Positions 16,224 to 20,526 of a DNA stretch of 64,000 nt are shown here, in pieces (position 1 is the stretch's first letter; each line of letters starts with the position of its first letter). Location of the stretch: assembly GCF_054482525.1 (NCBI RefSeq), contig NZ_CM137006.1; one strand, 5' to 3'. Both the position numbers and the translations under genes were made by a program. The notes under the pieces were generated by a model that worked only from the letters and a program-made list of their open reading frames with translations, ran no database searches and had not been told where the DNA came from.

Positions 16224-17473
<1,250 letters not shown>

Positions 17474-17650
17474 TAAAGTATGTAACTGGTTAATTTACAT
17501 TCTGGTCGCGTGCGCAAATACGCTTTTCCTCACACAGTTGTCAAGTGTTACGTTTAGATAATTGCTATCCGGAAAAGCATCTGCTATTTATAGCGGCCTC
17601 ATTTTTCCCCCGAACATGGGGATCGATAGTGCGTGTTAAGGAGAAGCAAC

Positions 17651-18106
17651 ATGCAAGAAGGGCAAAACCGTAAAACATCGTCCCTGAGTATTCTCGCCAT
17701 CGCTGGGGTGGAACCATATCAGGAGAAGCCGGGCGAAGAGTATATGAATGAAGCCCAGCTGGCGCACTTCCGTCGTATTCTGGAAGCATGGCGTAATCAA
17801 CTCAGGGATGAAGTCGATCGCACCGTTACACATATGCAGGATGAAGCAGCCAACTTCCCGGACCCGGTAGACCGTGCAGCCCAGGAAGAAGAGTTCAGCC
17901 TCGAACTGCGTAACCGCGATCGCGAGCGTAAGCTGATCAAAAAGATCGAGAAGACGCTGAAAAAAGTGGAAGACGAAGATTTCGGCTACTGCGAGTCCTG
18001 CGGTGTTGAAATTGGTATTCGCCGTCTGGAAGCGCGCCCGACAGCCGATCTGTGCATCGACTGCAAAACGCTGGCTGAAATTCGCGAAAAACAAATGGCT
18101 GGCTAA
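17651..18106 (+). CDS. dksA: RNA polymerase-binding transcription factor DksA
   Basis: ORF trimmed to [19 protein letters not shown]... (151 aa); C4 zinc finger [26 protein letters not shown]. Confidence 0.95.
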
Positions 18107-18134
18107 TTACAGCCGTTCCATCACGTTTACCACA

Positions 18135-18162
18135 GGCGGGAAATGCTCCCGCCTTATTTTTT
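18135..18162 (+). terminator. Intrinsic terminator downstream of dksA
   Basis: ggcggga-aatgc-tcccgcc stem followed by ttatttttt; ends about 11 nt before the gluQ ATG. Confidence 0.6.
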
Positions 18163-18172
18163 GTTCAACGAG

Positions 18173-19069
18173 ATGACTGACACACACTATATTGGCCGCT
18201 TTGCCCCCTCTCCTTCCGGCGAGCTTCATTTTGGCTCTCTGATTGCCGCGCTTGGCAGCTATTTACAGGCTCGCGCCCAGCAAGGTCGCTGGCTGGTACG
18301 CATTGAAGATATCGACCCGCCTCGTGAAGTTCCCGGTGCCGCAGAGACTATCCTGCGCCAGCTGGAACATTACGGCCTGCACTGGGACGGCGATGTTCTC
18401 TGGCAATCGCAACGTCACCACGCCTATCGCGAAGCACTCGCCTGGTTACATGAGCAAGGATTAAGTTATTACTGCACCTGCACGCGTGCGCGTATTCAAA
18501 GCATTGGCGGTATTTACGACGGTCATTGCCGGGAATTGCATCATGGACCAGACAACGCCGCAGTACGTATCCGCCAGCAGCATCCGGTCACGCAATTTAC
18601 TGATCAGCTGCGCGGCATTATTCACGCCGACGAAAAACTGGCGCGGGAAGATTTTATTATTCATCGCCGTGATGGTTTGTTTGCCTATAACCTGGCGGTG
18701 GTGGTGGATGATCACTTCCAGGGCGTGAGCGAAATTGTCCGCGGGGCAGATTTGATCGAACCGACAGTGCGGCAAATCTCGCTGTACCAGCTTTTTGGCT
18801 GGAAAGTGCCAGATTACATCCATTTACCGCTGGCGCTTAATCCACAAGGCGCTAAACTTTCCAAGCAGAATCATGCGCCTGCGTTGCCGAAAGGCGATCC
18901 GCGCCCGGTACTAATCGCGGCACTTCAATTTCTGGGTCAGCAGGCAGAAGCACACTGGCAGGATTTCAGCGTCGAGCAAATCCTTCAGTCAGCCGTCAAA
19001 AACTGGCGGCTTACCGCCGTGCCTGAGTCGGCAATTGTAAATTCAACATTCTCAAATGCGTCATGCTGA
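18173..19069 (+). CDS. gluQ: Glutamyl-Q tRNA(Asp) synthetase
   Basis: Class I aaRS-like [14 protein letters not shown] motif. Start taken at [10 protein letters not shown]; the ORF track allows an upstream TTG at 18143. Confidence 0.88.
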
Positions 19070-19128
19070 GCTATGATTAGCCGCTATTTTTTTGTCCTGA
19101 ATGATGTTTGACACTACCGAGGTGTACT

Positions 19129-20526
19129 ATTTTTACCCGAGTCGCTAATTTTTGCCGCAAGGTGCTAAGCCGCGAGGAAAGCGAGGCTGAACAGGCAGTC
19201 GCCCGTCCACAGGTGACGGTGATCCCGCGTGAGCAGCATGCTATTTCCCGCAAAGATATCAGTGAAAATGCCCTGAAGGTAATGTACAGGCTCAATAAAG
19301 CGGGATACGAAGCCTGGCTGGTTGGCGGCGGCGTGCGCGACCTGTTACTTGGCAAAAAGCCGAAAGATTTTGACGTAACCACTAACGCCACGCCTGAACA
19401 GGTACGTAAACTGTTCCGTAACTGCCGCCTGGTGGGTCGCCGTTTCCGTCTGGCTCATGTGATGTTTGGCCCGGAGATTATCGAAGTTGCGACCTTCCGT
19501 GGACATCACGAAGGTAACGTCAGCGACCGCACGACCTCCCAACGCGGGCAAAACGGTATGTTGCTGCGCGACAACATTTTCGGCTCCATCGAAGAAGACG
19601 CCCAGCGCCGCGATTTCACTATCAACAGCCTGTATTACAGCGTGGCAGATTTTACCGTCCGTGATTACGTTGGCGGCATGAAGGATCTGAAAGACGGCGT
19701 TATCCGTCTGATTGGTAACCCGGAAACGCGCTACCGTGAAGATCCGGTACGGATGCTGCGCGCGGTACGTTTTGCCGCCAAATTGGGTATGCGTATCAGT
19801 CCTGAAACCGCAGAACCGATCCCTCGCCTGGCTACCCTGCTGAACGATATTCCTCCTGCACGTCTGTTTGAAGAATCTTTGAAACTGCTGCAAGCGGGCT
19901 ACGGTTACGAAACCTATAAGCTGCTGTGTGAATATCACCTGTTCCAGCCGCTGTTCCCGACCATTACCCGCTACTTCACGGAAAATGGCGACAGCCCGAT
20001 GGAGCGGATCATTGAACAGGTGCTGAAGAATACCGACACGCGTATCCATAACGATATGCGCGTGAACCCGGCGTTCCTGTTTGCCGCCATGTTCTGGTAC
20101 CCACTGCTGGAGACAGCACAGAAGATCGCCCAGGAAAGTGGCCTGACCTATCACGACGCTTTCGCGCTGGCGATGAACGACGTGCTGGACGAAGCCTGCC
20201 GTTCACTGGCAATCCCGAAACGTCTGACGACGTTAACCCGCGATATCTGGCAGTTGCAGTTGCGTATGTCCCGTCGTCAGGGTAAACGCGCCTGGAAACT
20301 GCTGGAGCATCCTAAGTTCCGTGCTGCTTATGACCTGTTGGCCTTGCGAGCTGAAGTTGAACGTAACGCTGAACTGCAGCGTCTTGTGAAATGGTGGGGT
20401 GAGTTCCAGGTTTCCGCGCCACCAGATCAAAAAGGGATGCTCAACGAGCTGGATGAAGAGCCGTCACCGCGTCGCCGTTCTCGTCGTCCACGCAAACGCG
20501 CACCGCGTCGTGAGGGTACCGCATGA
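19129..20526 (+). CDS. pcnB: Poly(A) polymerase I
   Basis: Nucleotidyltransferase motif [18 protein letters not shown]. Start placed at ATT 19129 ([11 protein letters not shown]...), the published non-canonical AUU start; the ORF track begins at TTG 19108. Confidence 0.9.

Follow-up and report, generated by a model that had tools for sequence, protein, structure and literature searches.

The stretch of DNA analysed here (64,000 nucleotides, referred to as the window) has the gene order sfsA-dksA-gluQ-pcnB, which is that of Escherichia coli. Its positions 17400-19300 share 100% identity with E. coli PCN033, and the complete genomes of E. coli that match this same region number 5,424 out of 5,426. 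The RefSeq annotation of the identical region in PCN033 lists sfsA, dksA, gluQRS and pcnB, thus the names dksA and gluQ that had been given to the two central genes in the original prediction are right. The dksA coding sequence lies on the + strand at 17651-18106, as found in both the list of open reading frames and the PCN033 annotation, it encodes 151 amino acids and ends with the stop codon TAA at 18104-18106. It is followed by a spacer of 27 nt (18107-18133) and then by a hairpin at 18134-18154 made up of the stem AGGCGGGA (18134-18141), the loop AATGC (18142-18146) and the stem TCCCGCCT (18147-18154). Directly after the hairpin is the U-tract TATTTTTT (18155-18162), part of the longer tail TATTTTTTGT at 18155-18164, and a linker of 10 nt (GTTCAACGAG, 18163-18172) without a Shine-Dalgarno sequence leads to the ATG of gluQ. 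The gene gluQ, also named gluQRS or yadB, occupies 18173-19069 on the + strand and encodes glutamyl-Q tRNA(Asp) synthetase (GluQRS) of 298 amino acids. The hairpin therefore starts 27 nt past the dksA stop and the run of T, the last of which is at 18162, ends 10 nt before the gluQ ATG; the A of this ATG is 11 nt after the last T, in agreement with the distance of about 11 nt from the terminator that had been claimed.

The start of gluQ is annotated in two ways. The start given by PGAP in the PCN033 RefSeq record falls exactly at 18173, with the ATG at 18173-18175, whereas the reference record of K-12 MG1655 (NC_000913.3, gluQ at 159186..160112 on the minus strand) starts the gene 30 nt earlier, at an in-frame ATG within the loop of the hairpin (18143-18145), giving a protein of 308 amino acids. 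A K-12 coordinate x corresponds to window position 18143 + (160112 - x), and the conflict between the two annotations covers window positions 18143-18175, that is 160112-160080 of NC_000913.3. The same two in-frame AUGs, 27 nt apart and with the first in the loop of a terminator of -14.7 kcal/mol, have been described in Shigella flexneri, where the N-terminus of GluQRS was found to be TDTQYIGRFAP and thus begins after the second Met (Caballero et al. 2012, BMC Microbiol 12:226; PMC3542578). This N-terminal sequencing rules out the loop ATG at 18143 as the true start of gluQ. The loop ATG also sits inside the stem-loop and is absent from 75 of 80 species, being found only in Escherichia (5 of the 80), and E. 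whittamii has ATA in its place.

The hairpin and U-tract at 18134-18162 fit the sequence definition of an intrinsic terminator. A terminator scan of 18134-18154 returned 8 pairs, 6 of them G-C pairs, around a loop of 5, the isolated hairpin folds with -14.5 kcal/mol, and when folded within a context of 101 nt the z-score is -2.89 relative to shuffled sequences. A count on both strands of sites that have 8 or more pairs, of which 6 or more are G-C, together with 6 or more T in 8 gave 4 in the 64-kb window compared to 0.17 in dinucleotide shuffles, such sites being about 24-fold rarer in the shuffles, and it is thus very unlikely that one would occur by chance in a single spacer of 66 nt. The GC-rich hairpin and T-run that had been noticed between dksA and gluQ are therefore borne out by the sequence, the scan and the shuffle test. 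Elsewhere in the 64 kb equally strong combinations of hairpin and T-run are present only at 43679-43702 (+) and 50846-50865; as the latter scores on both strands, it may stop transcription from either direction.

The arrangement is not confined to E. coli. A comparative set was made up of the 80 closest relatives, with one genome per species, all of them Enterobacteriaceae and ranging from Escherichia to Cedecea and Buttiauxella, within which the identity of GluQRS is 77-96%. dksA is found directly upstream of gluQ on the same strand in all 79 loci for which upstream DNA was available, with a spacer between the two genes of 56-151 nt. All 80 loci have a hairpin of the form GGCGGGA(G)-loop-(C)TCCCGCC between dksA and gluQ, and its end is always 12-29 nt from the gluQ ATG. 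The sequence that flanks the hairpin in the spacer cannot be aligned between genera, with the 27-nt segment before it unconserved outside Escherichia, and the sequence of the loop itself varies freely among species.

Whether it is the pairing that has been kept can be judged from the alignment of the hairpin, in which 85.6% of cells are paired with the given structure, compared to 48-58% when the 3' partners are slid along. The six G-C pairs of the core never vary in the 80 loci and, being invariant, are uninformative about structure. Changes on both sides are found in 5 of 11 pairs; the top pair is either A-U or G-C, and the basal extension takes the forms AGG/CCT, AAGG/CCTT, CAGG/CCTG and TATGG/CCATA. 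Of 500 shuffles only 16 reached the covariation score, which is modest but consistent support, and taken together the structure of the terminator has been maintained in evolution across the 80 loci of Enterobacteriaceae.

The tail of the hairpin has fared differently in one clade. In Enterobacter and Lelliottia the U-tract has degenerated to TTGTTACYGTTGAT with the ATG directly after it, whilst the stem is unchanged; this tail is a poor U-tract and leaves only 12-14 nt to the start codon (at about positions 1964-2000 of loci L031, L040, L043, L049, L050, L058 and L060, and likewise of L064, L068-L070, L072 and L075). As the U-tract of this clade is degenerate and the stem invariant, the efficiency of termination may not on its own explain the conservation of the hairpin. 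A separate form of variation is seen in some Citrobacter, Phytobacter and Kosakonia, in which the spacer between dksA and gluQ is longer (86-151 nt; L014, L016, L021, L025, L027, L029, L035, L038, L039, L046, L051, L054 and L065), several of these loci carrying, ahead of the conserved hairpin, an additional one that is G+C-rich, and in Phytobacter there is a variant of the stem, GTCGGGGAAAATTTCCCGTAT.

That transcription does terminate at this site, and that it does so incompletely, is known from published experiments. The original prediction, that gluQ depends on read-through of the dksA terminator, had named two ways to check it, mapping of 3' ends by Term-seq and a comparison of reporter fusions that have or lack the hairpin, and data of both kinds are in the literature. 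The hairpin and T-run are identical between the window strain and K-12, for which the Term-seq of Adams et al. 2021 places a 3' end inside the U-tract, at 160097(-) or window position 18158 (PMC7815308). In LB at OD 0.4 the reads at this end average 3,097,035, far above most of the entries shown in the same table, and in a second condition there are 254,767 (PMC7815308). Its intrinsic terminator score is 7.47, where 3.0 or above suggests intrinsic termination, and its Rho score of 1.16 ('No') marks it as Rho-independent (PMC7815308). The coverage in windows of 800 nt is 250 upstream and 62 downstream without bicyclomycin, and 250 and 72 with it (PMC7815308), thus coverage past the dksA terminator is about a quarter of that before it. 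The study labels the end as internal to gluQ because the K-12 annotation starts the gene at the loop ATG. Within the same data there are further 3' ends in dksA itself (160387, window 17868) and in its leader (160652, window 17603) (PMC7815308), the latter being just past a weak terminator-like site, CTGCTATTTATAGCGG followed by CCTCATTTTT, within window 17581-17603.

Reporter fusions are available for S. flexneri, where dksA and gluQ were also found on one transcript by RT-PCR (PMC3542578). A fusion that ends at the dksA stop was about 10-fold more active than one that includes the intergenic region, and mutations that disrupt the stem gave more than 2-fold higher lacZ activity (PMC3542578). 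The 10-fold effect is that of deleting the whole intergenic region, with mutation of the stem alone accounting for little over 2-fold, and the reporter and N-terminal evidence comes from plasmids in S. flexneri rather than from the window strain. Only baseline activity came from a lacZ fusion in which dksA coding sequence was followed by the terminator and by codons 1-5 of gluQ, but which lacked the dksA promoters (PMC3542578). Operon mapping by RNA-seq in K-12 is in keeping with this. Conway et al. 2014 illustrate complex operons with ligT-sfsA-dksA-yadB-pcnB-folK, in which a dksA-specific unit stops at an internal terminator and the primary unit reads through the whole operon (PMC4161252). 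Further afield, gluQ also follows dksA in Pseudomonas aeruginosa (PMC3542578), in which the major 3' end of dksA is found in its 3' UTR (PMC8297930). The dependence of gluQ on read-through from dksA, as predicted, is thus supported by the co-transcript, the inactive promoterless fusion and the Term-seq of K-12.

It could be argued that gluQ has a start of its own, from a cryptic or alternative-sigma promoter that overlaps the end of dksA or the hairpin, possibly giving a near-leaderless mRNA, with the terminator serving dksA only. The original prediction held that there is no room for such a promoter, which was loosely worded as one could overlap dksA or the hairpin; its wider claim that gluQ is without a promoter of its own does stand, as such a promoter is excluded, for the conditions that were used, by the published reporter data. 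There are features that would suit a separate start: RegulonDB has a computational sigma-24 site for gluQ (PMC3542578), the sequence TATTTT at 18155-18160 resembles a -10 hexamer, and the missing Shine-Dalgarno sequence would suit an mRNA that has no leader or a very short one, being compatible with it but not diagnostic of it. Yet no sigma-70-like pair of -35 and -10 elements that matches at least 7 of 12 positions and is able to fire was found between the hairpin and the ATG, although the absence of a motif is weak evidence. The sole sigma-E-like match nearby (17419-17447, GGAACTT-17-TCTTA) lies before dksA, within the 3' part of sfsA. The operon map of K-12 names no promoter for yadB, the next one named being S-159171 (PMC4161252), which by coordinate mapping falls at window 19084, downstream of gluQ. 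The baseline activity of the fusion lacking the dksA promoters is the most direct evidence against a promoter of this kind and argues against a leaderless mRNA as well (PMC3542578), and a separate start for gluQ is extremely unlikely. At the other end of the gene a promoter-like sequence, TTCTCA-17-TATGAT at 19049-19077, overlaps the end of gluQ, with the position of S-159171, which drives pcnB-folK, 7 nt after it; the RefSeq start of pcnB is an ATT at 19129, with GAGG upstream (-7.2 kcal/mol).

The initiation region of gluQ is also unusual. In the window the best duplex with the anti-Shine-Dalgarno is +1.5 kcal/mol, which is to say that there is no Shine-Dalgarno sequence, and none is found upstream of the gluQ ATG in any of the 80 species, in which the median is +1.2 and the best -3.4 kcal/mol. 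The median for gluQ is therefore weaker than that of random ATGs in the window (-2.2 kcal/mol), whereas dksA has a duplex of -9.2 kcal/mol in all 80 species (AAGGAG in the window). Caballero et al. likewise report no obvious Shine-Dalgarno at gluQ (PMC3542578). The rejected ATG in the loop has a duplex of -6.3 kcal/mol, but is sequestered in the stem.

With the hairpin always 12-29 nt before an AUG that lacks a Shine-Dalgarno, its main role might be in translation, either by blocking access of the 30S subunit to the gluQ start, an effect that the original prediction had ascribed to the terminator alongside its control of read-through, or as a structural standby or positioning element that replaces the Shine-Dalgarno. 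The AUG of the window strain is paired in the predicted fold, its probability of being unpaired being 0.02, and to open it would cost about 3 kcal/mol, compared to about 5 kcal/mol for positions -15..+15. However, the hairpin ends at -19 from the AUG and is thus outside the core 30S site of -15..+15, and the effects seen with the published reporters came from transcriptional fusions (PMC3542578). The predicted pairing of the AUG involves other sequences than the hairpin: in the 101-nt fold CAUC at 18119-18122, which follows the dksA stop, pairs with GAUG at 18172-18175, and CGUU pairs with AACG, suggesting an extended stem that might sequester the AUG and couple it to the dksA stop. This was considered as a conserved feature and rejected, because the partners of the AUG differ even within Escherichia, being the CAUC before the hairpin in the window strain and, weakly, the U-tract in K-12-type Escherichia (which have AAAG in place of AACG), and because pairing is below the shuffle expectation. 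Across the 80 species the pairing between the AUG and the segment before the hairpin has a median of 0.02 compared to a shuffle mean of 0.14, and exceeded the shuffles in only 3 of the 80. It is therefore very unlikely that the hairpin acts mainly on translation, and the clearer translational handicap of gluQ is its complete lack of a Shine-Dalgarno sequence rather than the hairpin.

A further explanation keeps the hairpin as a terminator but makes it a regulated attenuator, in which read-through is tuned by a protein, small RNA, ligand or the growth phase, so that gluQ would be induced under stress such as stationary phase or high osmolarity. What gives this some appeal is the RT-PCR in S. 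flexneri, where the product that spans the junction increased 20-fold in stationary phase while the amplicons of dksA and gluQ changed 1.3-fold (PMC3542578), and this change at the junction is a hint that read-through is regulated and not constitutive. Caballero et al. explicitly leave a riboswitch-like or protein-binding role possible (PMC3542578), and the stem is near-invariant in 80 species, including those with a decayed U-tract. The latter is ambiguous, as selection for the stability of the stem alone would also give invariant G-C pairs. A search of Rfam with 17000-19500, at E-values up to 1, returned no match at the hairpin and only a spurious snoRNA match inside dksA, and the riboswitch search of Caballero et al. 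was likewise negative (PMC3542578). Moreover the segment of 23-30 nt that links the dksA stop to the hairpin is not conserved between genera, thus there is no conserved antiterminator or aptamer in it, and it pairs with downstream sequence no better than shuffles do. A riboswitch is expected to have a conserved aptamer or antiterminator upstream of its terminator, and at dksA-gluQ there is neither. Regulated attenuation is for these reasons a distinctly unlikely account of the locus. A search of the literature for a small RNA derived from the dksA 3' UTR found none.

There is a weaker form of these proposals, that the hairpin has a second selected role besides termination, be it as the site of a factor that affects read-through with growth phase or as a structure that stands in for the Shine-Dalgarno or standby site when gluQ is translated. 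It is suggested by a stem (GGCGGGAG/CUCCCGCC) that is invariant despite decay of the U-tract and that lies 12-29 nt before an AUG with less Shine-Dalgarno character than random ones. Such a role is unlikely.

The reading that is preferred is that 18134-18162 is very probably a strong but leaky Rho-independent terminator of dksA, with gluQ expressed from read-through and translated from a start without a Shine-Dalgarno, such that GluQRS is made at a level far below that of DksA. Transcripts would start at the promoters of dksA and at the upstream thpR/sfsA promoters, and the majority would stop in the U-tract to give abundant monocistronic dksA mRNA. Some 10-25% of RNA polymerases would read through and transcribe gluQ, for which a promoter of its own is absent. 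In the read-through RNA the hairpin would lie 18 nt upstream of an AUG lacking a Shine-Dalgarno, so translation of gluQ would probably be intrinsically weak. The combination of terminator and poor start would keep GluQRS far below DksA and at the same time tie its transcription to the dksA promoters. The structure of the terminator, its 3' end in vivo, its Rho independence and its effect on expression are established, as are the co-transcription of the two genes, the lack of a promoter for gluQ and its true start. That the missing Shine-Dalgarno lowers translation of gluQ is probable, and a low and fixed ratio of DksA to GluQRS may well be the function that has been selected.

An arrangement of this kind explains how the same promoters can supply DksA, a factor of the stringent response, in large amounts but the synthetase that forms glutamyl-queuosine on tRNA(Asp) only in traces, and it couples the modification of tRNA to stringent and stress control. 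There is a practical consequence too, as the loop ATG of the terminator is still the gluQ start in the K-12 reference and genome-wide studies therefore label the dksA terminator as internal to gluQ.

The dksA-gluQ-rs operon of S. flexneri and E. coli (PMC3542578) is the same locus as that in the window, and as the published experiments on it support the main interpretation, a leaky dksA terminator that gates gluQ is already known, having been published in 2012 for Shigella and E. coli, with the later Term-seq and RNA-seq corroborating that account. The two are alike in having two in-frame ATGs 27 nt apart, no Shine-Dalgarno and dependence on the dksA promoters (PMC3542578), and the hairpin is -14.7 kcal/mol there compared to -14.5 kcal/mol here. 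The window strain differs from K-12 and Shigella in having N/H rather than K/Q, that is AACG instead of AAAG before the ATG and an N-terminus of TDTH instead of TDTQ, and there is no substantial difference between the window locus and that of S. flexneri. What the comparison made here adds is the presence of the hairpin in 80 species, the lack of a Shine-Dalgarno at gluQ in all of them and the restriction of the loop ATG to Escherichia.

The nearest analogues cited by Caballero et al. are dnaG, which has a terminator and an unusual Shine-Dalgarno, and recX, with about 10% read-through (PMC3542578). Both rpsU-dnaG-rpoD and recA-recX resemble dksA-gluQ in that a Rho-independent terminator separates a highly expressed gene from a promoterless one whose product is of low abundance. 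The genes themselves are different, and gluQ starts unusually near its U-tract, at a distance of 10 nt, and lacks a Shine-Dalgarno altogether. A likeness of another sort is with the preQ1 riboswitches of queuosine genes, which also have a terminator hairpin immediately upstream of a queuosine-linked coding sequence. In contrast to these riboswitches dksA-gluQ is without an aptamer, an alternative antiterminator or a match in Rfam, and the gluQ hairpin has a translated gene and an unconserved spacer of 27 nt upstream of it.
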